Of a DNA stretch of 64,000 nt, positions 12,379-34,127 are shown piece after piece. The DNA comes from Psilocybe cubensis. Taxonomy: Eukaryota. Each line of letters opens with the position of its first letter. The stretch's first letter is position 1. Below the pieces are notes generated by a model, which was given only the letters and a program-made list of their open reading frames with translations, was not told the DNA's origin and searched no databases. Both the position numbers and the translations under genes were made by a program. The stretch lies in the NCBI GenBank assembly GCA_017499595.2, contig CM039003.1, forward strand, positions 496,001 to 560,000, read 5' to 3'.

Positions 12379-13235
12379 ATGCTTTTTCTGCTTCTTCTCT
12401 CGGTAACCCTTCTAGATACTGCTCTCGGTGCTGTAAATGACGCATGCACTGCCGGAAGTACTCCAGGAGTATGTTTGTCAACCAGTACCTGCTCTTCAGC
12501 AGGCGGAACATCACACGCAGGATTTTGTCCCAATGATCCATCGACAGTGCAATGTTGCACAAAAGCATGTGCAACCTCAGGAATTTGTCGCTTTTCCAAT
12601 ACATGTAGTAGCGGACTCACTGAAACTGGTAAATCTACTAGTATTGTGGAGTATAAATGTTTTTTGATGCCGCGTTATCAGGCTTGTGTCCCGGCCCCAG
12701 CAACTTTGTTTGTTGCTTCCCTTCCGCAACAAGCAGCTGTGCACCTCCGGCCGTAAACGCTGCCACACTTGCGCTTATCAAGCAATTTGAAGGATTTGTC
12801 GCGAGTCCCGCTCCCGATCCCATTGGTCTCCCGACTGTTGGTTATGGACACCTCTGCCAAACTACAAATTGTGGGGAAGTTCCATTTGCCTTCCCTCTCA
12901 CCCAAGCTCAGGCAACGAGCCTGCTCAACACCGATCTCAAGACGTTCACGGCATGCCTTACAAGTGATATCAGTAACGAAGTTATTTTGAACGACAACCA
13001 ATTTGGTGCCTTGAGCTCATGGGCATTCAATGAAGGATGTGGCAACGTTGGAAGCTCTACCCTGATATCGAGACTGAATGTAGGACAGGACCCTGACACA
13101 GTTGCTGCGCAAGAGTTACCAAAGTGGGATATAGCTGGAGGTTCTGTCCTTCCAGGGTTGGTGACCCGACGGGCAGCTGAAGTGAAGCTATTCCAGACGC
13201 CCTCCAATGTTATTGCTCATCCTCCACAATGTTAA
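12379..13235 (+). CDS. Secreted GH24 (phage/T4-type) lysozyme with two N-terminal Cys-rich modules
   Basis: Signal peptide; one intron 12629-12681; FEGFVASPAPDPIGLPTVGYGH (E-D-T motif), NQFGALSSWAFNEG, LPGLVTRRAAE; TATA-like TATAAA at 12343. Confidence 0.92.
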
Positions 13236-13639: not shown

Positions 13640-15437
13640 ATGGCCCCAGTAAAAATGGACAACAAACCAACTCTTTGTGCATGTAAAACAGATAGCTATG
13701 ATGCATCAAAGACGATAGCGGCTACCTATCCAACCAAAGATTTATGGATATTTTCAATACCATTGCACCTGCGATACAATCCCGACAAGCCATTTGGTTT
13801 CAGCTATGTAAAAACATTATTATATTCCGTGACTACAACACTCAGTGAGTATTTTATTCACGGTCTTGATAAGCAATAATGATTCGCTTATCGACACATA
13901 GTTGTGGCCAACCTGTATTACTGTCAACCGTTATTGAGTGAGGACATTCTTCATTCGGAGCTTCCAATATACTAGAATTTTTTCCGGTCGGCGTTAGTCC
14001 AGATGTCACAGTCATTTGAAGCATCCTACGAGGAGGTGTCTAGGTAGGATTTGTGGCGAAGGTGCATAATCCCACTCTAACAATTGTTTAGAATACCAAC
14101 GTGTGTCCAGGCAGGGTCAGTGCCACTGCTGACATTTCCCAGTCAAGACTCAATTGAGTTAACTAACGCCTTTGTAGCTATGCCGTCGGCCTTTTTCTCA
14201 TTTGTCCTCTTGGAGATAGTGTCCGCCGCCGGCAGCTGGTGTTGGGACTCATATTGTGCACAACACTGCTTTCTATCGGACTTGCAGTGACAAGAGATGT
14301 AATCGTCTTTGAGGTCCTGTCCTTCTTCGTCGGACTGGCGAATGTTGCACCACAGATCTTAATCCCACTTGTTGCTGAAATTGCCCCGCAGGAAATTCGG
14401 GCATTTGCATTCTCGCTTACCCTCACTGGATTGATGTTTGGCATTCTCCTTGCAAGGGTAGTGGCGGGACTGGTGGCTGAGTTCTTTCCGTGGCGTGTTG
14501 TATACTACGCTGCGATAATCATCCAGGCTCTCGTTCTGACAGGGCTATACTTCACGCTTCCGGATTACCCTGCAAAAGGAGCTGATCCCCCTTCGTGGCG
14601 ATTACACTGGTCCACTCTCGTACTGGCAGTCACTGAGCCTATTGCAGTACAGGTCATACTCATCAACATAGGAGCGAGTGCATGCTTTTCTTATTACTGG
14701 GTTACATTGACGTTCCTCCTCGGTGGACCACCGTATAACTATTCTACGTGAGTATATAATCTGTTTAATCATGTTGTTCTCGCATAGCCTGAGTGTGGGT
14801 CTGTAGAGTTGTGATAGGTCTTTTTGGATTGCTTGGAATGGCAGGGGTAGCTGCTGGACCTATCAGCGGGCGCCTCGTCGATCATATCCGCCCATGGCAC
14901 TCACTTCTTCTTTCAATAACCCTTCTACTGGTATTTCAGGCAGTGCAGGTTGTAGCCGGAGGTATCCATATATCAGCTGTGATAGTATCCTGCTTTGGTT
15001 TGGATTTTGTGCAGCAGATACAGACAGTTGCATTGGCGACCTACATCTTTAGGTGAGCATATGACTTGTGTACTAAGTTATATTCATTTATGAGTTCTTA
15101 ATTTCTTCTATCTCTAGTATATCTATAGCAGCAATTTCACGCTTGAATGCCCTATATATGATCTCGGTATGACCAATGCCATCACTTGATGTTTCGCTAA
15201 TGCCTCAATACTGCTTCTGCACAGTTCTATGTGGGGCAGATTATTGGGTCATCCGTTGGAACTGCTATCTTCATTAGATACGGATGGAGAGCATCAGCGC
15301 TGTTTGGCCTCGGACTCTACGGCTTCCAGCTATGCGTGGTACTCGCTAGGGGTCCAAATTGCACACGACACACGTGGTTGGGATACGAAGGGGGTATATC
15401 GTTTCCTTCTCTCTTACAGGTTCAAAATGAGGAATAA
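13640..15437 (+). CDS. MFS transporter (NepI-like, NLYYCQPLL type), copy A; start codon uncertain
   Basis: Exons encode VANLYYCQPLL, GLFLICPLGDSVRRRQL, GILLARVVAG, YWVTLTFLLGGPPYNYST, ARGPNC...WLGYEGG; many hydrophobic helices. Confidence 0.88.
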
Positions 15438-15754: not shown

Positions 15755-17017
15755 TCAGCGTAGTGCCCGAAGCTTGTCAATGACGTGTTGCATGTCGGGC
15801 TGGTTCCATTCACCGTTGAGGACGTTGGTGTGGTGAGCCCATCTATGGTTCTGATTACCACCAGGCGGAGGGCCTTCTTTGAAATTGTTTTTTATAACAT
15901 CAAATCCGTGTCCATCATGTTTACCGGTTTTGATGTATTGGTTGGAGGAAGGAAAGACATTGATGGTCATGCGACGTGATTTACCCTCTGAGATGGATTT
16001 GAAACTATGAGCCCCGCTACCAGAGTTAAGCGAATTGCTCGGGATAGAAGGAGGGATTGGGGATAATGATAGAGTGCCTCCAGATGGTATTGCCGTAGCT
16101 AATGCACATGAGAGATGAATTAACCTGTTGATGTTGATTAACTGCACGGCAAACGTACCAGAGTGCATATCCTCTGCAGCATAAACTCTACTTTGCTCCC
16201 TTTTTATGGTTGTACGCGTCGCGCTTGTGCCACAAACAACAGATTTCGATTGTGTGGTCCGAGGTTCAGTTGTGTCTTTTGTGAATTTATAATTCCGCTC
16301 ATTGGTCCCCTCCGGCAGTGTCGCATTCATTTTGTCTTCCGCTATCTCTACAGCTACCATATCACTCCTGTTCCGGTAATTTTCTGTTGAGCGAAGATGT
16401 ACGCTATCACTCCCGGACAGAAGAGGTGCTGATGAAGAGCTCGAACATATGCTTCTTGGACTGGATAGCAAGGTTGGAGAGGGCGGGGTATCCTGGAGCG
16501 GTAATTCATTTTTGTCTGGAAGCGATGGCAAACTTTTGGACATGTTTAGAGAAGAACGGGACGAAGGTGGTAAATTGTTAGAGGTTTCTAGTCGTTTTGA
16601 ACGTAGAAATTGGGAAGCGACGCTCTTTGCCCGCGACAATGTCGACTTTGAGGGTTTGGGGGTGCTGTAATCTTTGTTGAGTGTAGTGCACGACTGTGTC
16701 AGCAAGAACCTGTCAGCGGAAAATACTGGTTGATTTCTGAAACTCGTACTGACAGTACTTGAACTTGATTTTTTTGAATAGGATACTGAGCTCTCTGATC
16801 GTCTAGCTCTCAGAGGAGGATAGTCTCCATTAAGGGTTACATTGTGCACCGGATTCAGTGAATTCAGGATATTCACTGGAGGAGCAGGGCAGCATAAATG
16901 CGGCGGCAACGTAGCTGGTGAGCGGCTATGACTGTCGTACCGGTGAGAGCGAGGAGGGGCGAGTACGTCGAGAGCGCTGTGTGGGACTCCTCTTTTATGT
17001 GAGGTGTGAGTGGTCAT
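15755..17017 (-). CDS. Ser/Pro-rich, probably disordered hypothetical protein (420 aa ORF)
   Basis: Long uninterrupted ORF with low-complexity Ser-rich composition and a structured-looking tail GEWNQPDMQHVIDKLRALR. Confidence 0.65.
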   Translation of the reverse strand: MTTHTSHKRGVPHSALDVLAPPRSHRYDSHSRSPATLPPHLCCPAPPVNILNSLNPVHNVTLNGDYPPLRARRSESSVSYSKKSSSSTVSTSFRNQPVFSADRFLLTQSCTTLNKDYSTPKPSKSTLSRAKSVASQFLRSKRLETSNNLPPSSRSSLNMSKSLPSLPDKNELPLQDTPPSPTLLSSPRSICSSSSSAPLLSGSDSVHLRSTENYRNRSDMVAVEIAEDKMNATLPEGTNERNYKFTKDTTEPRTTQSKSVVCGTSATRTTIKREQSRVYAAEDMHSGTFAVQLININRLIHLSCALATAIPSGGTLSLSPIPPSIPSNSLNSGSGAHSFKSISEGKSRRMTINVFPSSNQYIKTGKHDGHGFDVIKNNFKEGPPPGGNQNHRWAHHTNVLNGEWNQPDMQHVIDKLRALR

Positions 17018-17570
17018 AAAGTGAAGACAACTGGGGGTGAGAGTAAGTGGTCAAGAGTAAAATACATCTATTTGTCACGCACTCCAAAGTTTCTTGAAGA
17101 AATTGATACTTTCCTCAATGTTGCGTCCCCGAGATTGAACCAAGATTTGGTTGCCATGATGTAACGTCATGATGGCTGATGTTGGTTTTGCAGTGAATGC
17201 AGGCTCTGTCAGTACTTATAAGCAGATGGTGATTGCCACCTTTCATTTTTAGGGCACAAGAGAAGGTATATCTGTTTCACAATCTGGCTTGTGGTTAGGC
17301 GCTAGGCCTTTGATTCGTCCTGTTTAACGTCAGATCTGCCGCGCATTGCCGAGAGGCGAACTTCATTTTTTTCCCACAAAGTTTTCCAATGCTGAAGTGA
17401 CGAACAGTTGCGGCATCAACTATCACTGTATCAGACCATTTCAACAGAACACGCTGCGCGGTGGCATTATTACGACAATCCATGTCGTGGGCTTCTGAGC
17501 TGGTTTGCGTCAAGACAATTTTATGTCGTGAGGTTCGAGATTCACAGTTTGAAAAAAGTCTAGTACAAAT

Positions 17571-20500
17571 CTAATGGGTAGGTAGGGTATTCAGCCAGGT
17601 GATACTCGGCATTGCATTTAGAATTGACTGCGTCAACTGGGTCCGCGAGACCTTGACGTCAGCTTTGGGGGCAAGGTTATTGTCCCAGGGGGCAGCTTTG
17701 TTTCCATTAAGGAAATCTGTCCAATAATCCAACTCTACGGGTAACGATAGCCGAACTTCCACAGTGTCTGCGTCGCCGCCATTAGGGTTAAAATTTTGGA
17801 TGTAATGGGTTATCTGGGACTTGAGGTATGGGACGACACCGTTGAGGATATTGTATATCTAGCCCGTGTGAGGTCAGTGAGTTCTTTTAGATGGTCACAT
17901 TGACGTACAAAGTTGTCATAGATATTGGGCACATTAACGTTGCCCGGATTGGGACCACGAAGGGGACTTAGTTGCACATAGCTATTGTACCAAGATACCC
18001 AGATATTACGTATACATGTATTGTCCTTCTTGAACAATCTTTTTGCCTAATTTATCTGATATTAACAGCTCTGGGGATTCGTTTAAGAAGTTAGGCACTC
18101 ACATCAAAACTGTTCAAGTACGAGGGGAGGCCTGCTGCTGCACGTAACCGCGCTACCTGCTTCGTTGGGCACATTTTATCCCACTTATCATCGTCTACCA
18201 GTTGGATCACATTTCTGTTTCCAGGAACAAGAAGGCGCTCTGTTGCAAAGTATGCATAATTCTTGAACACGTTTGCTTGTTGCTCCAGCATCACCATCTC
18301 GTCGGCTCCATTTGAGCCACCTTTGGTCTACTATTTAGCAAAAAAGGTACATAACAAGGGCCTGTAAGCTTACCGGGGTAACAATTTTGTATCTGCTCAA
18401 AGACCGAATTTGATCCTGACCTCAGATTCTGATTGACCCATTGACACCATGATCTATGGTTGAATGTATTAAGTATGACATTGCAAACCTGATTGAGTGA
18501 CTTACGGGCCCTTCTTGATCTGCCAGAGATCAGTGAACTGCTGTAGATGATCGATGAACAGCGATGCTAAAATGACAAATAAACTCGAGTTACAAAGGCG
18601 AAGACAAAGACAAGAATTCACCCATGCTAACTTCGTAGATGTGCTCCCGTCCGTAGATTGCTCCTCCACTTTCATCTGTCGTCAGAACTGGAATGCCGGC
18701 GGCGTTTAAAATGTTGGGTGGGTATGGGGTGTACGTCCCCAATGTAGGCTTTAGTTGTTCAGCAGGTTTTACGTCAAAGTATGTAACGATATCTGTGCCC
18801 GAGTAACCTGACATGTCCAGGGAGTATGCTGGACATGTGGTCATTGTGGCTGTCCCACTGGCACGCCGGAGTATTTGATCAGTTTGGTCATCCATTGTCT
18901 GATCATCCTTTGTGTATGTAGATGAATAATTGGCTGTGATATCTTCAATCCAACGCGCTTGAATATCAGCATATTGCCCTAGGATAGATAGTAGAAATGG
19001 TTGAATATAGAAAATTCGAAACAGTACTAGAGCACTCACCCGTGGCGCCTTGGTCATCAATATTATTATCCGAGTAGCAATAACAATCAGTGGCCCCGCC
19101 GACACCTGCAATCTCATCTCCTACAGTCGGGCAGGTAAGAAAACCGGGCAAGAAAGGTATAGCTCGGCGTTTCAAAGAAGGATCATGTTCGATTGCAGAG
19201 GCATCAGCGGATCCAACAGTCCATGAAGTCAGCGGCTTCTGAATTGTAACAGCCTCCAAATCATTCATACTGCGCTTTTGAGATGTCGGTGAGCGCTTGT
19301 TAATCACCGCATATGCCGGTATGTCCTGGTCATGGGTCATGAGAACGCTAGACCCGAGCTGTCCAGAGCCACGCGCTTCGTATGTGTAGGAAGATTCGTT
19401 GATGCTACGTCTGCTATTGCCTGATCCAGTGCCCTCATTGACGGAGTCGAAGCATGATCCTCCGAAGGGGAAATCAGCAGAGAAGAAGTTCTTTCTGTGA
19501 CATAAGTGAGCAATACGCATTTGAGCACAGAAACTAACACGCACACAACTGGGTCAGCCCTCCAGAATAATACAGAACCAGTTAGTCCAGCGTTAAGGTT
19601 GATTCCATAGTGCTGTTCAAATGTCAATCGCGATCCATGTAATAGTATTCAATTAATTACCGGATTCACGCAAAATGTGAGAGCCGACTTCCCGTAGGAT
19701 TTGTCAGTTCTGAAGGTACGAAATCATGAAATTGAAAGGCTTACAGACTGGCTCACGCTTCCAGAAATGGAAACTCCTGCATACATGTCTGCTTCCGCGA
19801 AAACCTGGAGAAGACATAAGCATTGACAGGACGGTGCAAAATAGGTTCGCCCTACCTCGGCATCTATCAAGGACCCTCCAAGTACGTTGACACCAAGTTG
19901 TAGTGACGGGATCTACAGAACTGGGGTGTCAGGGTATGCCTGAAAGGAGGGGCAGTTATACGAACAATATGAGCCTGACAAGGAAAGGTGAGTAGAATGA
20001 TAATTAAAAAAGTAGGGCTGCGTACCTGAAGAGAACCTTCCAAGTTGACGTTGTACCCTACAGCAAAATCATATCCCACGTTATCGCTCGTGGAATTAAC
20101 AGGAGACGATGGATCCTCCTAAAATGCGTGCGCAGGGTTATGTGTTGAAAATAAAGTTTGGTGAATCGAACATCAATGGAACTTGCCTCGTCAGGGTTGT
20201 CGTCTGCGAGACCAAAAGCATAGTTGATTGGCTATAAATGTGTATGATAAGTTCAAATCAACTGGAATGAAAAGGTTGAATTTGCATACCGGAAATGTAT
20301 ACCCAATAGTTGCAGTGTACCGTCCAGACAGACTCAGCTGCCCCGTGAGCTCCCCGTAGAGGTGAAGGGATGGACCAAGTGTCAAAAGACCAGGATAGTA
20401 AAGTCCTGGGAAACCAAATGTTGCCAGTTCACGCCTGCCACTGGTGTAGTGTGCCTCTGCAAGTCCAGAGATTGTAAATGACGCTTGGGCGCCTGCGCCT

Positions 20501-23500
20501 GCGTCAAAGAATACGTATGCCTGTTGAACTGCGGGAGGGACGATGGTCGCTTCGAGGTAATAACCGAATTGACTGGTGATCTGAGCCGTTCCAGTGACAC
20601 TGATATCGAGGCTGGATGAGAAATTCGGGCACTGTTGCTCTGCGTGGAATATCGTGTACGTATCTGACCACTGAATAATGCGTTAACGAAGCATTGTGAC
20701 ACAAATAAAGGCGTATACATACATGATAATCTCGGCTGACTGTCTTCGAAGAGCGGACAGTGTTAAGCTTCTTCAGCCATGCATCGAATGGTCCAAACCA
20801 CCTCTTATCGTACTCTAAGGGTTGGTGGAAATCACGTCTTCTCCTGGTGCTGGTGGTGCCAGAGTCAGGCGGACTGTTAACGATGGCGTCCCTGAATAAA
20901 AATATTAAATATAGCGAAATGAACGTCAGGCAAATAACGTGCCAGTAGCCAGGGATATCCGTCTGTGGATATGAAGTTAGTAAAAACAGATGTATACCCT
21001 GAAGTTACATACCACATCGGCTCTCATCCTACATTCAGACAAATCAGCGGCTTCCAAACCTATGTCAATGAAAGAAGCTTACAGGACAGGCCCGTTATCC
21101 TCCGGTATGGCAAGGAAATTGTAGTCAAACGACAGGGAATATACCATTTCATTGGTAGGCTTCTTCGCCTGATGTTCTTGGGACAAGGAATTCTGGTCCG
21201 TATGTTCAGTCAAAGAAACTACACGAGCGTAAGGTCCCAGACCACATGATTTGGGCATTTGGATAATGGTATGCTCAGCTTGGCCAATGAAAACGTGGCC
21301 ACAGCCGGAGTCATCATCGTCCATTGATTTTGAGCAATATGCCAGAACCTTCAAAATCGGGTCAAAGTTAAGCCCCCAACCAATAGACGTTTGACTAACC
21401 GTCTGTGGCTGATCACTGGTCGAATCGCAGCCAGTAACCACCCAATCAGATGCGATATCCATTGAGCTGACGGCACTGGGATTTGGGGATGAAATAAAAA
21501 GCTCTACCCGCTCAACCAATTAAACATTAGAAATTTAAATTGGGAAGCAAAGACGCTACCTCCAAATGGACTATCATTCTCTCTCCCGTCATCACCAATT
21601 CCACTTGAACCCGCACCGGTTGAAGATGTGCTCGAAGTGCCAGTGTTATCATCGAAGTCGACAGTAAAAGTGACCGGTTCATCTGCGTCCACAGTAGAAG
21701 GGAACACGTCGCTTACAGGAATGGGGACAAAAGACGACCCTATTTTTCACAATATAAATCATCAATATAGGGTCCGGAAATGGGTCAATGTTCAAGTTTA
21801 CCTGAGGGTGGGTCACAGCAATAATAACGTTTGTTATTTCCAAAGCATTGACTGCTTGCATCTCCCTGAATATCGCTAACTGATAGGTAGCGTGAGCAGG
21901 CCTATTGATGCAGTTTTACGACCTGTACTCACATATGGCAATCTGACCAGGGCTGCACACGGCATTTAAGCACGCAGGTGGGTCTCCAACCCATTTACAA
22001 TTTTTATAACCAGCTGATTGTCGAATTTATTTTATAGTTGAACTACATAGTTAAAGATGACTTACGTTTGCAGCAGACCGGTTTTGTGGGTTCCAAGCAC
22101 TCTACAGGGCATAGTGCAAACGGTCCTTGACCCGGGGGGGTATCAGCGCAGCCGTCGATGTCGATGGGCCCCAAATTTACGTGAGTTTGAGCAATAAATG
22201 GGGGATCACATGTCTGTGAATCACAAGCTGAGGAAAGGAAACAAAGTGGTTTGATATTCCAACTAACATGATCGAGAATTGCCACTCACGTCCGGTAGAA
22301 CACGCTCCAGCTTGTGGGTCCCCCGATGAGCAGCAGAATGCTTTAGAACCCTGAATGCATGTTGGATGTCCATCATCTCCAGTTTTATCCAGAGCGAGGA
22401 CGATTTCCCCAACATTGCATCGTCCATTACAACTTGTCCCCCCTCCTCCTCGCCACGAACATTTCTGAGGTTCGTCTCCTTTAGGACAGCAAAGGCGTGC
22501 GAGCTTGTTCTTCGGACATGATCCTCCGGTGGGTATTTGGCTCAATCTTGTCAGTGAATCGTATCCGGGGGGACATTGTTGACCACAGCCTATGAATGGT
22601 TGACGTTGAGGATTGAGTTGAATTGTGAGCCTAAAATTGAGCGTACCAGTTACTCGGCACTGATTGCCGGACTCGATCGAAGACGGCGTATTGATGCCGA
22701 TATCGGGATACAGGCCAGTTAGAGCGGTATACAAGTTGTCGTCCTGGTCAAGGGACCATATCATTGTCCCTTCAGGAGTGCAAGTAACCATCTATGTGAT
22801 TCTTTGGAAATATTGTATAACTAACCTCCTAGACAAATGCTATTTGCATAATTCAACTTCATTTGCAATGTTTGAGCGTCGTCGTACTATGGTTATGTGA
22901 GATGTGTGTTTCAATGGAGAGTAAATGCAACACATACAGATACCCATTGATTGTCATTCCACGTTATATACTTCACAGCCGCAGCCTCGTCAAATACAGG
23001 AATAGCGTTGCTGGTGCTGTCCAAGAGTTTCTGAATTTCTGAGAACATAAGTGTCCCAGAGTTAAGGGAGCACTCGCCCGGATCGCCTCCACCGGAGAAA
23101 GCACAGCCCGGGGAGCTGCATTGCTGATTTAACGAGCTTTTAATTAGCGTCGAAGATGGGTGTATAAATCTCGGATATGAAATCTTACCCCGTCCACAAG
23201 TGTGAAAGAACGCCCGTAAAAGCCTATCCCCATCACCATCTGGGATGGATCGATCTGAACATTTCGAAAAAGTTGCATGGTGTCCATAATCTCTGTTAAA
23301 TTTGTGTGAGCTAGGACGAACGGGCCGACATTTGTGTCGTTCTTATCCCAGACGCCATGTAGATCGTAGGTCATGATGTTGACCTAAAATACATTGAGGA
23401 ATAAACTCAAGACAAGTTGAACATTTACATACCCAATCAGCCGATTTTAAAAGAGCTGGAAGATCAAAGTGCTGAAGGTACCAGTAGCTTGAGGGTGCCG

Positions 23501-24759
23501 TAAAGGTTAATCCGTATCCTCGAGGGGAGAAGGCTGATTTAATTCTGGATAAGAAAATTGGGAAATTATCTTTATCTTCTGGTGCTCCTCCGCGCTCGGG
23601 TGCCACAGGATACTCCCAATCAATGTCAATTCCGTCAAATCCATAAGCCTGTAATACCCCAAGTGTGCTTTTAATAAATGTATTTGTCGCACTGAGGCTC
23701 CCTGCCAAATTGCTGAAGATATGTTGTGTCGGCTAAGGGGTGTTTAAATTTTATAAATAAAAATATCAGAAGCCTGTCAACCTACAGGATCGTTAAAGTT
23801 CCATCCGCCAATTGACAGGAAGACTTTAAGTGTTGGATTTCTCTCTTTTAAAGCCGTGGTTCGTATCCAAAGGGAACTGTCGTTTGCCGCCATTTCCTTC
23901 AGAGTGAAGTCCTCAGAAATAAGGGCAAATGCAAAGTTAACTGCCATCGTTGTTCAGTTCAATGGTTCTACCAAGGTAGTATTAAACTTACTATGCGTCA
24001 AAGTCTCCGCTGATATTAACTCTGGAGGGTACATATCACAAGCCCGACTGTCGCTAGCCACCGCCCACGCCTAGATGAGAGTAAATTATCTACCGGTAAC
24101 TCGGAGAATAAAGGAACTGACCTCATAGTATCCAATACGTCTGTGTAGAGCCGTTGCCTGGTTGTCCCCACAAGACTCTTGAGCTGGTGGCTTACAGAAA
24201 GACTGGCAACCAGTCTCACAGAAATCTAATTTATCACAATAGTCAGGTATGCCCATTCGAAGCGGTCCAAAATCTACCCTCTGTAGTTCCGCAGAAGCCA
24301 AACTATATCAAACATGGTTAAGCGTTAATCAATGCAATATACAAGCGGACTCAGACCTGACTGCAACAGACGTTCAACGGGCACGTAGAATTCGCAACAG
24401 CAGCAAATTTTCCGCACTCTGCTACGGCACCGCAGTTTGAGGTACAAGGTCCACCTGAAGACACAGGAGTGCAGAAATCAGGTCCAAATCTTTTTCACAT
24501 TATACATCATTCAACGGATAATATTTACTTCCAGTATGCTCGACTCACCCACAAAAACCGGACTCCGAGTTGCAACATGCCCCGTTTCCACATGGAATAG
24601 TTTTCGTGCAACTACCAACTGGTAGTCCTGTGGTGTTTCCCTGGGCATTAACTAGTCCCCAATGATATACGAACACTTGGAACAAAATGTCAGCATAGAG
24701 AAGTGCTGCAAGAGTCTTGGAAACCCACGAAAAAAAATTAATGCAGTATGAAGTAGCAT
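17571..24759 (-). CDS. Very large secreted subgroup-C (killer-toxin-like) GH18 chitinase: signal peptide, two hevein/CBM18-like domains, GH18, Cys-rich repeats, beta-rich domain, C-terminal extension
   Basis: Spliced N-terminus MLLHTALIFF/LFVYHWGLVNAQ; CCNSESGFCG and CPLNVCCS/FGFCGTTE; FLSIGGW, GFDGIDIDWEYP (intact DxxDxDxE), MTYDLHGVWD, WSLDQDD; downstream exons link through canonical splice sites to stop at 17571. The single-gene join of the 3' part is inferred. Confidence 0.85.
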
Positions 24760-25691
24760 GACAAGATACTGCAAAGAGATGCTTTGCCCACTTGCAAACT
24801 GGTGTCATTTTTAATCGACTCGAGACCAATGCAGCTGATACAACACGGTCCGATAAGTGACTGGGTCATGAGGGTGGCGATAAAAAGAATGTTGGCTCGG
24901 ATATTTACTAGCTACGGCATTCCTCACATTGAACCTCGAATCGAGAGGACCTCGCGGTCCATCGGTGCTGACAGTAGCTTCCATGAGCATGCTACACACG
25001 TGGAACTAAAACGAAATGCTTGCTCCATTCTTTTGTTGCGTACTTGTCGGTTGTCGTAGCCAGTTATAATGCATGAGTGGATACATATGTAACAATTGCA
25101 ACGCTGGATTCCTTTCTAATTAATAAGTTCTAAACCCTCATGACCTTTAACGTGCCACATCCTCCAACTTTGTTGAGCATCCAAGTCACCATCCCGGACC
25201 GACAGCATTTCCTCAGATGTAAACAATATTTCATTGAAACATGAACCTTCTAGGTAGTTAGAAGAACGGTCTTAGCCTAAATTTAAAATTGCCACAAAAC
25301 AGGTATAGAAACCTTTGTTCCAATTACAATGTGCCAGCTCAACCGCCGGATTGCCTATACCAGACTTCCGTGAAGCGAGGACCGAAGCATTGCTTGCTCA
25401 CTTATCAATAATTACGAGGTGAAGGCTATAAAAAGACGGTTTTGCCTTACTCTGCCGAATATCAAATTTGTCAAGAGGAAGCAACGCGCCTCGTGGTTCC
25501 CTGTCGAACTTTTTCCAACCTGACCGAGTCAGATTCTGATTGTAGCGTCAATAAACCGGTCTACACGGGTTTATCCACCGAGAAATAGCATGTACTTTAT
25601 AGTTTATAGTGGAACTGATTTGTATTCCAATTCCCCAGCCTTTTCGTCAACTCTGGCAATTGCAACGCTGCTGTGAGAGTCAAGGAAAACC
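24760..25691. promoter_or_regulatory. Putative bidirectional promoter between the chitinase and LysM genes
   Basis: 932-bp gap between divergent ATGs; TATAAAAA at ~25427; exact 14-bp direct repeat CAATTGCAACGCTG at 25093 and 25657. Confidence 0.5.
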
Positions 25692-28600
25692 ATGTCAATA
25701 ATACTGAGGCTCTCACTACTCGTCTTATTTTCTTTCCTACTCCCTGTTTATGCATCTGTGAACAAAATCAAGCAGAAGGAAATAATCCAGAATGAGAAAT
25801 TCCATTCCAGTTTACTCAAACAACTCGCCGACTCTCGGACAAAGACTGATGTATTCAACGATACATTGTCACCCTCAAATCCATCTTTGGATTTCAGCTC
25901 GTCAAATTCCTTACCTTTGCTTTCAACAAATGCCAGCGTCAGCCTGCAGATATACACATCGGACACACTCCCATCCAATCCAGCTCCCAATAGCGTCTGT
26001 GCAGCAGCCATGACAGCAGCAATACCTTGTAACTCATCAATTCCGCTCATGGCGTTAGTTGCGTATCTTATACTTCCAAGGATCACCTATTGATAATAGA
26101 TATTATATGCCTCTAGACTTGGCCCATATCTCTTCACTAACGACCTTCCCACTCTCTGCACCGACGATTGTTTACATGGACTTGTATCGTATCGTGCAGA
26201 TGTGGTTTCAGCTTGCGGGAACTACTTAATCACTGATACAGGGGGCAACTCGTATCCCCCAACACTGGCAGTGGACTATGTTTCTGGTCCTTATACCGTG
26301 CAGTGTCTCAAAGATCCCGACAGCGGAAATTTTTGCGGCACTGTCATTGAATCTTACAATACAACGGACGGGCTACTGTCGCTTCCAACAAATGAATTAT
26401 GCACATTTTGTACGCTGGAGACTCTGAATGCAACGTTATCCAACCCGACTAGCTTTTCGGATGACCTCGCTGATATCCTTTCAAGTGCCATCAACACGTG
26501 TGGGACGTGGGTATTTCAAAAAGCATCAATTTTGTTCCCTTAAGCTGACCTCATCCAGCGATTTTGAACAGTATAATGTCTCTTCAACGGGCGACCAAGT
26601 TGTCATATCAACACCGTTTGGGGTCAATTCTACGACCGCGCCTACTGTTGACTGCACAATCACCGGACAAAACATCTCGACGACTGAGGCGACAACCTGT
26701 GCGGATGTAGCTGCCCAATATAGCGTGAGCGAGTACGACATTTTCTCATCAAATCCTCTCCTCGACGCCGATTGCAACATTGAGTCTGGAACCGTGCTCT
26801 GTGTTCCTCAACAATGTACCACTTATGTTATTGCGGTTAACGATACGTGTCAGTCGGTCGCTCAGCTGGCGGGCACAGTTCCTGGCACAAGTCTCAACGT
26901 GACCGCGTCCCAAATCCAATCATTCAATCCCGACCTCGGAACGTACTGTCAATTGATTTCACTTCGTGTGGGGAAAGCAATCTGCTTGAGTCCAAATGGC
27001 GGGTGGCCTTCGGTAGGGGTGACTAGCGCAGGGAATCCATCTGGTACACCTACCGCCGCTGCACCTATCCCAACCCCCACTGTTAACGGCACAACATCCG
27101 CTTGCGGGAAATACTACCTTGTACAAGGCGGGGATATTTGCCAGACTATTTGTCTCACCAATTCCATCACGTTTAGTGATTTTCTTACCCTTAATCCGGG
27201 TGAGTAATTTAATTTTGCATACCTTTTCGCTGTGGTATTTAACTTGAGGCTCAGAGGTTGACGCCAACTGCACCAATTTATGGCTTGGATATAACTACTG
27301 TGTTGCTCCCTACCCACCATTCTCATCCGTAACTGCCGCACCACTCCCCACAACCAATTATACAAGCGCTACTATCTTCAGCTACCCTATTCCTACGGCG
27401 AATTACACCATTACCTATACGTCTAGTCGCGTCACACCTGCTGGAGTTCCAGCTCCAACAAATATTGCTAACGGAACACGACCCGTTGCTTGCGGGAGCT
27501 ATTACGATATACAGGTGAATATCGCCCGTTTTTTTAGGTTTCATGACGCTTTATTGCAAATCATTAATCTGAGTCACGATAGACCGGCGATACCCTCGAC
27601 TCTGTTTCTGAATCCGTTGGTGTTGATGCATCCCTCCTCGCAACATGGAATCTTGAACTCAGCAGTGGTGTTTTACCCCCTGTTGGCTCCGCTATCTGTG
27701 TGACCTTTCCAGAAGGCAATTACACTTTACTCGCCGCACCGCGTCCCACAAATACATATGCCAATGCCACCACAGAATGTGCACAATACTACACCGTCCA
27801 AAATGGGGATGGATGTAGCTCCATTGAAAGCTCATTTGCACTTACAAACTCACAATTTGACCAACTTAATCCCGGCTTAGCAAGCAGTTGTACGAATCTC
27901 GTCCTCGGGGATGCTTATTGTGTTCTCCCTACCGCTCCCTTCTCTTTATCCAATTCTACCGGCCTACCGGATAACGTTGCGCCGGGGACAATCACTGATG
28001 GATGCACCACCTACTACACCGTCAAGTCTGGAGATTCTTGTACTGTGGTGGAGGATAACTTTAACATAACCTTGGCGCAATTCACGACATGGAATCCAGA
28101 GATTGACAGCCAGTGCACCAACATTGAGGTTGGATTGGCGTATTGTGTTGCATCCTCCTCTTCCTCGTCAACTGGTCCGCCCAGTAATGTTGCGTCAGGG
28201 ACAATCACAGATGGATGCACTGATTATTACACTATCGTATCGGGAGACTCTTGCCCTGCTATTGAAACTAAATTCAACATTACTATGTCACAAATCACGA
28301 CGTGGAACCCTGAGATCAACAGCGAATGCACGAACATACAGCTCGGACTCGCATATTGTGTTGCATCCAGCCTGGCCCCACCAACCAGTGGACCTCCCAG
28401 TAATGTAGCATCCGGGACTGTCACATCCGGGTGTACATCATATTACACCGTAGTCTCAGGGGACTCCTGCTCCGTCATCGAGGCTAAATTTGGCATCACA
28501 TTGGCTCAGTTTACGACATGGAACCCCGAAATCAATAGCCAGTGCACAAATATTCAGGTTGGCCTGGCGTATTCATCAGAAAAACTACAACCTCTAGCAC

Positions 28601-30142
28601 TTGCGGGAGCTCACTTTCACTAGTAGCTTTTTTCCCTTCCACCACTTTCACCAACACTTTTCAAACCACTTTCATTACTTCCGACACTTTCATCAACTTT
28701 TTGCTCTTTCTTTAATTATCCAAAACAATTTTTCATATTTGGTTTAGTTTATCTCAGTACATGTTTCTTGTTTCTTTGTAGCACTACCGAATGCTTTGAA
28801 TTCATTGTGTTGTATACAATATCACTTGTTAGCAAAGGAGAAATTCAACATCAAATTTGTTGAAGTTCGTTCGGGCTCCGATTAAATATTCACGTGATGT
28901 TCAGATAACAATCATCGTATCGATTAATCTTTCTTTCTTCCCGTCCTCACACATCTCCGCAGTTATGTTTGTCAGTTTAGGTTAAAAATGTATTGTTCGT
29001 GAGTTATATTCCTGCTTCAATGCGTTCTGACATGACTTGCTGACTTGTTTTAATATGTTTAGAAGTATCTAGGTTCTACCCTTCGTCTATCTCCTCCCTC
29101 CATCTATCCCCCCTCCCCTCCCTCCCTTCAACAAACCAAACCAAACCTACTCCTCCTCTCCTCCTCTCCTTCTTCAAGCTTTGTTGCACGGCAGATTTGT
29201 AGTCATTGTACGGATGCTATGATGGTGGAAATGGTATGCATCTGCTATTGCTTGTGTTGCCTATGCTGACCTCAGTGACCTCAGGCCAATGACCATATCG
29301 CCGCTTTTGTGTCAATAGTAGGAGAAGTGGAAGGTGATATCTGATACGGTAGTTAACTGGTATGTCATTCTGCCGTTGGTCTTCTATACCCTCAAAGGTA
29401 GCGTTTCGTTGTATATCAATTGTTGGTTGGTAGTTTGTTATGTAGTTCTTATGTAGTTTCATGTATACCTATGATACCTGTCTTTCAGAATATAATATAT
29501 TATCTCAATTAATATCAACAATCAAGCGAAAAAATGAACTAGCTAACAACACTTCCGAAAGTGTGAACATCTAGTTTGTCGCTTTTGATCACCCTTTCAG
29601 TACTTTCGAAAGTGAAAACACTAGCTGTGAGAAATGGGGTCTGGGTAGCTGCAAGCGTCAAACACTTGCGCACTTTTGGCACTTTTTGGCCCTTTTCTCA
29701 CTTTTGAAAGGTGCGAAAGCGTCTGCTAGTGGGGTTGTACTTTTTCTGATGTTGTGTTACTTCAAGTTTTTTGGGGTCATCTACCTCGGGCCCTCCGTCC
29801 AACTTGGCTTCTGGGTCACTCGCGAATTGCACCAGCTATCATACTGTTGTTTCTGGAGACAATTGCCCCGCCATTGAGACATCTTCACATATCGCAGCAT
29901 CCGATTTCTTCAAGTGGAATCCCGAGGTATCGCATGACTGCTCAAACATCCAGGTTGGGGAGGCGTATTGCGTAGCAGGTGGTGGAAACCCGTGTAAAAA
30001 GATATACGTAGTTCAATCCGGAGACTTTTGCTTTGCGATCACGCAGAGTCAGAATATCACCCAGCAGCAGTTGATCGCGCTGAATTCTTTCTTAGACACT
30101 AATTGTGATTTGGTTGTCGGAGAAGGTATATGTGTTGGATAG
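25692..30142 (+). pseudogene. Secreted multi-LysM (CBM50) protein with a Cys-rich N-terminal domain and about 10 LysM domains, disrupted by a transposon at 28574-29751
   Basis: Signal peptide; repeated fungal LysM units (CxxYYTVxSGDxC...WNPEI...CTNIxxGxAYCV). Removing the insertion plus one TT restores AYCVTSSFLGSSTSGPPSN in frame to stop 30142; as is, translation stops at 28623. Confidence 0.88.
28574..29751. mobile_element. Non-autonomous TIR DNA transposon (1178 bp), CACTA/CMC-like
   Basis: 19-bp TIRs CATCAGAAAAACTACAACC / GGTTGTACTTTTTCTGATG (1 mismatch), 2-bp TSD TT, multiple subterminal CACTTT/AAAGTG repeats, no recognisable coding capacity. Confidence 0.88.
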
Positions 30143-32342: not shown

Positions 32343-34127
32343 ATGTCTTCGAACTCTACTCTCAACGGAGACATCGAGGTCGCCTCCAAAGAGCAAGAAA
32401 AACCTTTCCATGGTAGTGTTCTCCCAACCGACCTATCCGACGGTCCCTCCAAGGACTTCAATTTTCTCCCCATTCCAAAACGGCTTCGATATCATCCCGC
32501 AAAACCATTTAATTTCAATATATGGATGAACTGGGGGCTTAGCTTTGCTGCTACGTTCCGTAGGTTGCCCATGCATATCCGCAGCAGTAATCACTCATCA
32601 CCATGTCTTATTTTTAGTAATCTCAAACATGTATTATTGTCAACCATTACTCAGTACGTTCACCGGCTCGCTCAATATCTGAGAGAGTAAATAGGCCGAT
32701 AATGACTGTACTAAACAGTTCAAATGTCGATTACGTTCGGGGCTTCCTACGAGGCCGTCTCCAAGTAAGCTCAATTTTCAATTTGAAGTTTTGTTCTAAC
32801 AGTCTTCAAGAGTCCCGACTTTGATACAGGCAGGGTAAGCAAGTTGTTGCTTTGCCGCAGTAGCTCAATCCCGTATTCAAAAAATGTTTAGATATGCAGT
32901 GGGGCTGTTCTTCATCTGTCCATTAGGAGACCTTGTGCGACGGCGGCAGCTGTTGTTGCTCCTCGTATTCGTCACAGCCACACTAACCATCGGGTTGGCA
33001 ATTACACGGAGTATCTTGGTGTTTCAAATCCTGAATTTTCTGATTGGCCTGGCCAACATCTCCCCGCAGATTCTGGTACCTCTCGCTGCTGATCTCGCGC
33101 GTCCTGAGCAAAGAGCATTTGCCTATTCCATTGTGCTCACCGGCATGTTGTCAGGTGTCCTCATTGCTCGAGTGCTCTCTGGGGTGATAGCACAGTTTTC
33201 TTCCTGGCGTGTCGTGTATTATATGGCAATCGGTGCCCAATACCTCATTCTCCTTGTCAGTTATGCCGTGATTCCGGACTATCCCGCAAAGAACAAGGAT
33301 ATGACTTATCAGGGTATTCTCTGGAGTATGATAAAGTACTCGGTGACGGAACCACTCGTCGTACAAGTCGAAATCATGTCAATAATGACAAGCGCGTGCT
33401 TTTCGAGCTACTGGGTTACGTTAACCTTTCTACTAGGAGGACCGCCATACAATTATTCAACGTAAGTTATAATCTATAAACCCATTTTATTAACAATCGT
33501 AGTGCTCACGTCTTGTTTAGTCTGGTGATTGGACTCTTCGGTCTACTAGGCCTTGCTGGAATGGCCATGGGTCCATTTGCTGGTAGAATTGTGGATAACA
33601 TCGCACCTTGGTATGGAATGCTCGTATCGACCATTCTGCTTCTGGTTTTCCAGTCTATACAGACTGCTGCTGCAGGCTTTAGCATTGCAGCCGTCATTAT
33701 AGCGTGCATTGGGTTGGATGCCATTCGGCAAATGCAAAATGTCTCGTTGACTACAGCAGTTTTCAGGTATGTGATCTTCAATTTGTCCTCTCCGATCCAG
33801 CGGATTGATCATTTGCTTTCAATATAGTATTGAAATGGGAGCTGTATCCCGACTTAACGCCCTGTTTGTACTCGCTGTGAGTATGATTTATCCCAAAAAA
33901 AATTATTCTCAATTTTATTCTCATTGCTTCTTTAGTATTACGTAGGGCAGCTAATGGGGACGTCTGTTGGCACAAAGATTTTTGTTGACCATGGCTGGAG
34001 AGCATGTGCTCTCTTTGCTATGGCTCTTTACGGGTGCCAACTTCTTGTCCTTTTTGCCCGGGGACCGCACTGCCCGAGGCGAAAGTGGCTTGGTTATGAA
34101 GGGGGATTCAGGATGAGGAAATCATAA
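32343..34127 (+). CDS. MFS transporter (NepI-like), copy B
   Basis: NMYYCQPLL, GLFFICPLGDLVRRRQL, GVLIARVLSG, YWVTLTFLLGGPPYNYST, ARGPHC...WLGYEGG; intron positions match copy A; stop TAA 34125-34127. Confidence 0.9.

Follow-up and report, generated by a model that had tools for sequence, protein, structure and literature searches.

A killer-toxin-like chitinase gene of Psilocybe cubensis with a conserved C-terminal extension bordered by candidate kexin sites

The yeast killer toxin zymocin (Kluyveromyces lactis pGKL1) has three subunits, of which alpha and beta, at 99 and 30 kDa, come from one precursor that carries chitin-binding and GH18 chitinase domains and is cut in the secretory pathway; the third, gamma, has a gene of its own. 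We describe here a mushroom gene of similar layout, located on the minus strand of a 64,000-nucleotide stretch of Psilocybe cubensis DNA (contig CM039003.1, positions 496,001 to 560,000), which we call the window and in which positions are counted from the first letter. An initial annotation, made from the sequence letters, had proposed that the gene encodes a giant killer-toxin-like chitinase with the layout of a single-gene AB toxin.

Zymocin is treated in PMC13556262, PMC13348850, PMC11848437 and PMC13442484, the last of which also describes the K1 and K28 preprotoxins, where Kex2p excises an internal spacer between two functional pieces. The killer-toxin-like enzymes form clade C of the chitinases, proteins of 140-170 kDa with a C-terminal extension, none of which had been functionally characterised according to a 2020 survey (PMC8042737). 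Within the clade, C-II and plasmid-encoded chitinases carry LysM and are linked to neighbouring gamma-toxin and immunity genes, and C-I chitinases are described as lacking LysM; the same report describes a conserved Cys near the carrier C-terminus in the known systems, LysM-only genes that also accompany ascomycete toxin clusters, and an absence of such clusters from most Basidiomycota, where they occur only as rare transfers (bioRxiv 10.1101/2024.10.25.620242). In Trichoderma the chitinase gene tac6 is paired with the LysM gene tal6, and Tal6 is an inhibitor of the fungus's own germination (PMC4392113). In Agaricomycetes, expression of chitinases during development is widespread (PMC10282164). 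Studies that link clade C to killer toxins have dealt chiefly with C-II enzymes of ascomycetes, whose toxin genes are separate, and among the published descriptions of clade C we found none that dissects the extension considered below, although supplementary tables may list members.

Comparison with these systems supports the window gene as a member of the killer-toxin-like (clade C) kind. Its predicted protein of 189.7 kDa agrees with a size of 140-170 kDa or more (PMC8042737), and a CBM18 chitin-binding module lies N-terminal to a class-V GH18 domain with an intact DxxDxDxE motif. The protein has no LysM, as in C-I and unlike C-II (bioRxiv 10.1101/2024.10.25.620242), and its gene adjoins a LysM-only gene, as tac6 and tal6 do in Trichoderma; it differs from the ascomycete C-I enzymes in belonging to a Basidiomycota lineage (Agaricomycetes and Ustilaginomycotina). 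We hold with moderate confidence that the locus is one gene for one secreted pro-protein of about 190 kDa, that this protein represents an uncharacterised, Basidiomycota-wide branch of the clade-C GH18 chitinases, and that it is processed by kexin into three pieces. The likeness to zymocin is by layout, not by sequence comparison: one precursor with chitin-binding and GH18 domains, predicted here to be cut in the secretory pathway, with predicted pieces of 97 and 32 kDa near the sizes of alpha and beta. It departs from zymocin and from the Pezizomycotina C-II chitinases of toxin clusters in that there is no LysM in the protein and no gamma-toxin or immunity gene recognised nearby, and from zymocin in that a third conserved domain of ~47 kDa is fused here, where zymocin uses a separate gene.

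The gene model was built as a homology-guided, spliced model and then checked against RNA contigs and orthologues. A stop-to-stop scan of open reading frames (ORFs) gave a chain of short frames holding a signal-like segment, hevein-type Cys motifs, GH18, Cys-rich blocks and a long extension, and the model unites them in one minus-strand unit (17571..24808) of 37 exons, 1753 residues and zero in-frame stops, ending in the stop codon at 17573..17571. Residue numbers are those of this 1753-residue working model throughout; an alternative and better junction, 21560/21503, would give a protein of 1749 residues instead. When the 1731-residue orthologue P0004 was used as a TBLASTN query, its residues 2-1731 were covered by 18 collinear pieces (window 24703..17574). 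The exon at 20191-20682 found 85 proteins, of which 66 carry PF00704 and 28, from many genera, are at least 1600 residues long and collinear with the window gene from end to end; the named proteins among the 85 are almost all from Agaricomycetes, and the top match is P0001, a Psilocybe cubensis protein of 98% identity. All 1062 TBLASTN pieces from the 85 homologues fall in this one place, at 17-24 kb on the minus strand, and we found no second copy of the gene in the 64-kb window. The single minus-strand gene that had been proposed for this interval is borne out by these alignments. The start codon proposed with it, an ATG at 24759, does not share the frame of the first chitin-binding exon and meets a stop after 35 codons; the ATG that is in frame stands at 24808. 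The public model for the locus, P0001 (1563 residues), likewise needs correction, as it lacks the first ~170 residues (window 24808-23941), reads the first Cys-rich repeat in the wrong frame (window 22263-22541), and adds the residues ASSID through the use of a GT donor in place of a GC donor.

Evidence from RNA comes from contigs of two small public runs (X1 and X2), which are not recorded as RNA and which we take to be RNA, the contigs carrying spliced joints. Downstream of 21083 the spliced contigs agree with 14 of the 18 introns of the model (eleven simple joints and one compound joint), and they connect the exons over domain X, the RRRR site, the beta domain, the spacer and the C-terminus, all of which are described below. 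One contig is unbroken over 19039..19494, and therefore the variable spacer is coding and retained in the mRNA; a candidate intron at 19235-19308 was rejected, as the contig reads straight through it. The four introns that have no RNA match are supported by orthologues only; among them are a GC-AG intron that follows 20187 and the two that enclose a 9-nucleotide micro-exon at 19974-19966. The splicing at 19966-21028 (minus strand) is unusual as a whole, with micro-exons of 16 and 20 nucleotides that are confirmed by RNA, the orthologue-based micro-exon of 9 nucleotides and the GC-AG intron. The two longer micro-exons belong to the compound RNA joint 20892/21082, which has 34 letters between its halves and within which a second GC donor of the model (GCACGT) follows 20943.

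We also weighed whether the locus might be two genes, with its 3' half a separate transcript, as in the public model of the paralogue P0002 (1067 residues, extension only). P0002 and some other database entries begin inside the Cys-rich region, and the RNA contigs are 3'-biased. We nevertheless find a division barely credible, since the 28 models of at least 1600 residues unite both halves and the reading frame is open over every junction of the model. Because 35 of the introns measure merely 44-68 nucleotides (the doubtful first intron is 84), there is no space for a second promoter, and one RNA piece stops exactly at the exon border 22290, within the Cys-rich part.

The N-terminal half of the single pro-protein follows the clade-C plan. 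Residues 1-27 (24644..24808, minus strand, as are all features of the gene) form a signal-like segment, a hydrophobic stretch ending in LLYADILFQVFVYHWGLVNA before QG. The signal peptide of the initial annotation stands to this extent, that the stretch (...LVNA before QG) aligns with the signal peptides of orthologues; it is signal-like by that alignment only, and the start codon given for it was wrong. The first exon may hold an 84-nucleotide in-frame intron (24799..24716) with a weak donor, GTTTGC. Of two chitin-binding domains that had been proposed, one passes Pfam: residues 78-121 (24434..24197) are a canonical CBM18, or Chitin_bind_1, domain (PF00187), matched with an expectation value (E) of 1.8e-12 in the orthologue P0004 and of 3.2e-4 on a partial window exon (21.3 bits, below the cut-off of 27.8). 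The other, at residues 36-63 (24619..24477), is a degenerate hevein-type Cys pattern and has no Pfam match. The GH18 catalytic domain (PF00704; residues 135-482, 22738..24157) was matched on two window exons at E 7.5e-18 and 1.1e-09 (65.7 and 38.8 bits, cut-off 29.6) and on P0004 at E 7.7e-67 (226.6 bits), and its catalytic motif, DGIDIDWE at 23636..23613, is intact, as had been proposed. The Cys-rich repeats are equally real. They comprise residues 536-607 and 652-717 (22521..22306 and 22111..21809), in a segment with 26 Cys in 218 residues, and align with each other at a local score of 79, against 33.5 +/- 6.1 for shuffled sequences (shuffle maximum 55); Pfam finds no family in the exon that holds the first repeat. 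An acidic Ser/Gly/Thr linker (residues 723-784, 21731..21502) follows, and then a conserved domain with a beta-rich fold, which we call domain X (residues 785-934, 21501..20846), for which the predicted local distance difference test score (pLDDT) of the AlphaFold model is ~74-93 (mid-model blocks 61-190). A fold search with a 528-residue model that includes this domain gave nothing significant, which does not exclude families not listed in that search. Beyond the N-terminus no 19-residue hydrophobic window exceeds 1.28, which leaves no transmembrane helix there, and on this ground a membrane protein or one anchored by glycosylphosphatidylinositol (GPI) was set aside, GPI signals themselves not having been examined.

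The evidence for processing lies in the pattern of basic residues. The model holds 15 dibasic clusters, and we scored their conservation in the 28 full-length homologues. The first candidate processing site, RRRR at residues 935-938 (20845..20834), is dibasic in 25 of the 28, and a candidate KR at residues 948-949 (20806..20801), abutting a conserved WFGPF, in 27; an 11-residue peptide lies between the two. In the second candidate region an RR at residues 1250-1251 (19412..19407) is dibasic in 23 homologues and a candidate KRR at residues 1330-1332 (19172..19164), abutting a conserved AIPFLPG, in 25. Between these last two sites lies a variable spacer of 78 residues (1252-1329), the least conserved part of the protein, with a median identity of 0.22. 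All four border sites fall in stretches of the AlphaFold models with pLDDT below 50 (mid-model residues 207-225; C-terminal-model residues 1-21 and 42-81), and they adjoin invariant residues (R226 and W227, where KR meets W, and the AIPFLPG motif). Elsewhere in the protein, seven dibasic pairs are kept in merely 0-5 of the 28 homologues, and those at residues 140 (within GH18), 880 and 710 in 26, 21 and 13.

The dibasic motifs listed in the initial annotation are all present where it had placed them (RRRR 20845, KR before W 20806, SRRS 19412, NKRS 19298, QKRS 19277, KRR before A 19172 and LRRA 18868), and as processing borders they divide: four are conserved (23-27 of 28) and lie in disordered loops, whereas LRRA (residue 1411) is kept in part (11 of 28), and NKRS, with 5 of 28, and QKRS, with 3, are not conserved. 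Conserved borders of this kind are the pattern expected of kexin sites, and we consider kexin processing likely. If the protein is cut at the four sites, the calculated pieces are 97.1, 32.4 and 47.0 kDa, the last becoming 38.2 kDa if the bond between LRR and A is cut too. A variable spacer between two conserved dibasic sites also recalls the K1 and K28 preprotoxins; those are small toxins encoded by double-stranded RNA, without wall enzymes, and have no sequence or size relation to the window protein.

These same sites bear on whether the gene might encode an ordinary wall-remodelling or nutritional chitinase, with dibasic motifs that go uncut and an extension that remains on the protein, where it would serve structure, anchoring or folding. 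In its conservation and its purifying selection the extension is like a housekeeping part; agaricomycete chitinases have the wide developmental expression cited above (PMC10282164); and the LysM partner may have its role in the wall of the fungus that makes it, as the self-inhibition of germination by Tal6 illustrates (PMC4392113). We judge this explanation distinctly unlikely. An anchoring role finds no transmembrane helix outside the N-terminus, and processing is favored because the basic pairs alone are kept within variable, disordered loops, which is hard to explain otherwise.

Under the processed pro-protein that we favor, the middle piece (piece B) would be the beta domain, of ~300 residues and ~32 kDa (residues 950-1249, 19413..20800). 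Its model consists of one helix followed by long antiparallel, amphipathic predicted strands of 18-28 residues, at a pLDDT of 69.9 overall and ~63-86 across the strand region. The dyad hydrophobic moment of seven long strands is 1.25-2.32, versus ~0.4-0.6 for shuffles, a modelled amphipathicity that would fit a sandwich or a membrane sheet equally. Matches to DUF7223 (PF23865), a family of Ascomycota, recur below threshold (E 0.0045, 0.012 and 0.011; 16.7, 15.2 and 15.4 bits, the cut-off being 27), and one homologue has a weak Pfam match to an outer membrane protein (OMP) beta-barrel. In the ESM Atlas, the ten best family-bearing matches all share a family or clan with the top one, an ascomycete DUF7223 cluster (score 0.92, 203 shared features). 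The recurrent weak matches and nearest language-model clusters point to a remote likeness only, for the DUF7223 proteins are stand-alone, of 184-477 residues and of unknown function, and the window scores stay below the Pfam cut-off; no paper on DUF7223, DUF7029 or PF23865 came up in a literature search. Foldseek gave no match to the beta-domain model at E<=1e-3 (best E ~0.03). The weak rows of the fold search, which serve as a lead only, are mostly membrane beta-barrels and pore formers, with best Z values of 5.9 (root-mean-square deviation, rmsd, 5.9; 101 residues aligned) and 5.6, and BrkA at 5.7 (rmsd 6.1, 93 aligned), all below the tool's meaningful level of Z 8.

It is from such features that a self-contained AB-type killer toxin might be argued, in non-polymorphic form: the chitinase would attach to the target wall and open it, the beta piece would enter the membrane and translocate, and a C-terminal enzyme released by Kex2 would be cytotoxic. 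The conserved dibasic borders suit this, as do predicted pieces of 97 and 32 kDa close to the zymocin alpha and beta sizes, and the long amphipathic strands with their leaning toward membrane beta-barrels and pore-forming toxins (Z 5.9, Foldseek E ~0.03). These structural matches all lie below the meaningful level (Z <8), however, the dyad amphipathicity fits an ordinary beta sandwich equally, and toxin clusters are tied, in the account cited, to the LysM-bearing C-II enzymes and not to C-I (bioRxiv 10.1101/2024.10.25.620242). The AB-toxin reading has no support from any toxin similarity, and we think it unlikely, though a serious contender. The C-terminal piece is where it would have to find its enzyme.

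That piece (piece C), 421 residues long (17574..19163), begins with a poorly conserved, low-confidence stretch (residues 1333-1417, 19163..18848), in which LRRA lies, and continues as a folded alpha/beta domain in the model (residues 1418-1753, 18847..17574). The model has a pLDDT of 81.7 and a predicted template modelling score (pTM) of 0.83, with pLDDT mostly >85 in the predicted folded core (residues 82-421 of the piece), so that the distinct terminal domain of the initial annotation is upheld as a separately folding one by the model. Eighteen residues are invariant in 11 diverse members, including Y150, R152, E153, H154, E157, N224, K227 and R267 of the 421-residue piece; several of these form an invariant YxREHxYE motif, in the window YGREHIYE at 18655..18632. 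The cluster suggests a catalytic or binding site. At the extreme C-terminus (17574-17600) many homologues share a further pattern, W-x-N-x-L-P-x-H, which extends to the stop codon.

Searches of the C-terminal domain for relatives of known function returned nothing significant. Pfam gave no family; a sequence search of the PDB gave no match with P0002 at E<=1 and none with the C-terminal profile at E<=10; Foldseek with the C-terminal model gave no match at E<=1e-3 (best E 0.22); and the best hit of the VIA fold search had a Z of 4.8, with an rmsd of 8.7 over 162 aligned residues. The effector that had been envisaged there finds no similarity to any known toxin or nuclease in Pfam, PDB sequences, Foldseek or VIA, and this tells against the AB-type killer toxin as well. 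In favor of the latter are the invariant Arg-Glu-His-Glu cluster and the pace of change, the C-terminal domain evolving twice as fast as the rest (median identity to the 28 homologues is 0.32 at the C-terminus, and GH18, domain X and the beta domain stand at 0.65, 0.64 and 0.60).

A polymorphic toxin, as proposed in the initial annotation, is not what the homologues reveal. In each of the 28 full-length homologues the alignment covers more than 50% of the C-terminal domain, and because this domain is homologous and collinear in all of them, the polymorphic-toxin reading fails; none of the C-termini has been exchanged, and the faster change still concerns the same domain, with its invariant residues and with 129 proteins that fit one profile. 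Full-length members also occur in Ustilaginomycotina (Violaceomyces and Tilletia). Within the species, two other P. cubensis assemblies differ from the window at 19 sites, 12 of them coding and 2 non-synonymous (S393A and N1718D), and the C-terminal domain is nearly invariant among the three. Because only 2 of the 12 coding differences are non-synonymous, diversifying selection is not visible within the species, which is a further point against an AB-type toxin. The sequence comparisons indicate that the C-terminal domain is probably a conserved catalytic or ligand-binding module and not an exchangeable warhead.

Relatives of the C-terminal domain are few. Searching its profile against 1.84 billion representatives gave just the 129 proteins mentioned, at E<=1e-3, and a near-length search with the piece gave 1 match, a fragment. 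The long, GH18-fused profile matches that were looked up by name are basidiomycete in ten of ten cases, and include Violaceomyces and Tilletia (Ustilaginomycotina), Exidia, Sistotremastrum and Ganoderma. By its homologues the domain is an autonomous module, as stand-alone relatives exist: P0152 of Pholiota conissans has 371 residues, a signal peptide of its own and a degenerate REH motif. P0152 and the full-length member P0099 share one Pholiota conissans contig of 158098 bases. A more distant ascomycete protein, P0206 (572 residues), matches the profile with 93% probability (E 3e-7, 194 columns) and keeps EHxxE. The source name of P0206, 'Killer toxin subunits alpha/beta 4', would suit the AB-type toxin; it is a depositor's label and not a tested function, and among the sequences searched we found no longer relatives of P0206 and no bridge to full-length ascomycete or zymocin sequences. 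One may go further and see in the gene an old, nuclear, single-gene basidiomycete counterpart of the three-subunit yeast killer toxin, in which a chitinase, a DUF7223-type part for membrane passage and a C-terminal enzyme at work in or on the target cell would be released from one precursor by kexin, and whose toolkit would also include the ascomycete proteins that stand alone and resemble piece B or piece C; we regard this broader proposal as unlikely.

Returning to the processed pro-protein of clade C, we envisage the following course. A signal peptide would direct the protein into the secretory pathway, where a Kex2-type kexin would cut at the four conserved dibasic sites in exposed loops. 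Piece A (~97 kDa) would comprise CBM18, GH18, the Cys-rich repeats and domain X; piece B (~32 kDa) the putative DUF7223-like amphipathic beta-sheet; and piece C (~47 kDa) a predicted folded core with the invariant polar cluster (Y, R-E-H, E, N, K, R). The 11-residue peptide and a variable spacer fragment of 81 residues (8.9 kDa) would be thrown away, and the pieces may cooperate on chitin-containing walls with the divergently encoded LysM protein. Here we infer not only cleavage but also the association of the pieces, the activity of B and C, and the target.

Several observations weigh against this account. Upstream of 21082 the RNA coverage consists of 22290..22443 only, with none over the GH18 half, so that support for one continuous transcript is indirect. 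Cleavage is read from the sequence by itself. The link to DUF7223 consists of Pfam scores of 15-17 bits, under the cut-off of 27, and of a language-model look-alike search, and the term C-I-like reflects architecture and literature. The faster evolution at the C-terminus (0.32) would suit an arms-race effector too.

The locus defines a conserved basidiomycete branch. Its whole extension can be split where the dibasic sites are conserved, giving three testable modules, of which two lack a matching solved structure or family; the purpose of the clade-C extension, a question of long standing, thereby becomes open to direct test. Should the toxin reading be true, zymocin-like killing would extend to mushrooms in fused form. 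Even if it is false, a public gene model has been corrected, and the pairing of chitinase and LysM genes is common to two fungal phyla.

The LysM partner lies ~0.9 kb upstream and is divergent: one or more secreted multi-LysM genes at 25677..30142 (plus strand), with PF01476 in their ORFs. A signal-like exon reading MSIILRLSLLVLFSFLLPVYA lies inside the ORF 25677..26093, and PF01476 was matched in the ORFs at 26428-27207 (E 2.5e-09), 27583-28623 (E 7.7e-39, 5 stretches) and 29750-30142 (E 7.6e-14), these three together holding at least 8 LysM stretches. We fetched 80 metagenome loci, and in all seven of the related ones examined, which represent at most 5 independent sequences, LysM repeats lie upstream of the chitinase; six of the loci carry them on the strand opposite to it, and L010 carries them on both.

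The neighbourhood is also where the gene might be explained as a carrier only, like zymocin alpha/beta, that delivers a gamma-type toxin encoded elsewhere in the genome. Its architecture is analogous to the alpha/beta precursors, and the toxin clusters of ascomycetes, too, come with LysM-only genes (bioRxiv 10.1101/2024.10.25.620242). We find this very improbable. The gene is flanked by the LysM gene and by a Ser-rich ORF without a Pfam family, with no recognisable toxin or immunity gene; the absence of an immunity gene recognised beside it also counts against the self-contained AB-type toxin. The last Cys, C291 of the 421-residue piece, leaves none in the final 130 residues, where the known carriers have a conserved one, and most Basidiomycota are, in the same account, without such clusters (bioRxiv 10.1101/2024.10.25.620242). 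Among the flanking ORFs Pfam recognised LysM, the major facilitator superfamily (MFS), GH24 or no family, and no toxin or immunity gene, with the limit that gamma toxins are too divergent for such a search and unknown families are not excludable.

Profiles of the extension domains match 2 of the 80 metagenome loci: L001, a close orthologue, and L065, which is distant and intron-poor and has domain X and a weak beta match. In L065 (9441-10787, plus strand) a GH18 relative is followed by an unbroken frame of 449 residues with a full domain X (E 7e-26) and the weak beta match, at which point the contig ends. Pfam found no family in one ORF of L065 and three of L004.

Three further features of the window may be recorded. 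Directly downstream of the chitinase gene and on the same strand is the Ser-rich ORF, of 431 residues (15755-17050, minus strand), for which Pfam has no family. An ORF at 12657-13235 (plus strand) strongly matches GH24 phage-type lysozyme (PF00959, E 1.2e-37) in this mushroom genome, and the ORFs adjoining it have no family. Fragments of MFS transporters (PF07690, E ~1e-16) lie at 14167-14751 and 32839-33465, both on the plus strand and ~18 kb apart, and flank the chitinase-LysM pair.

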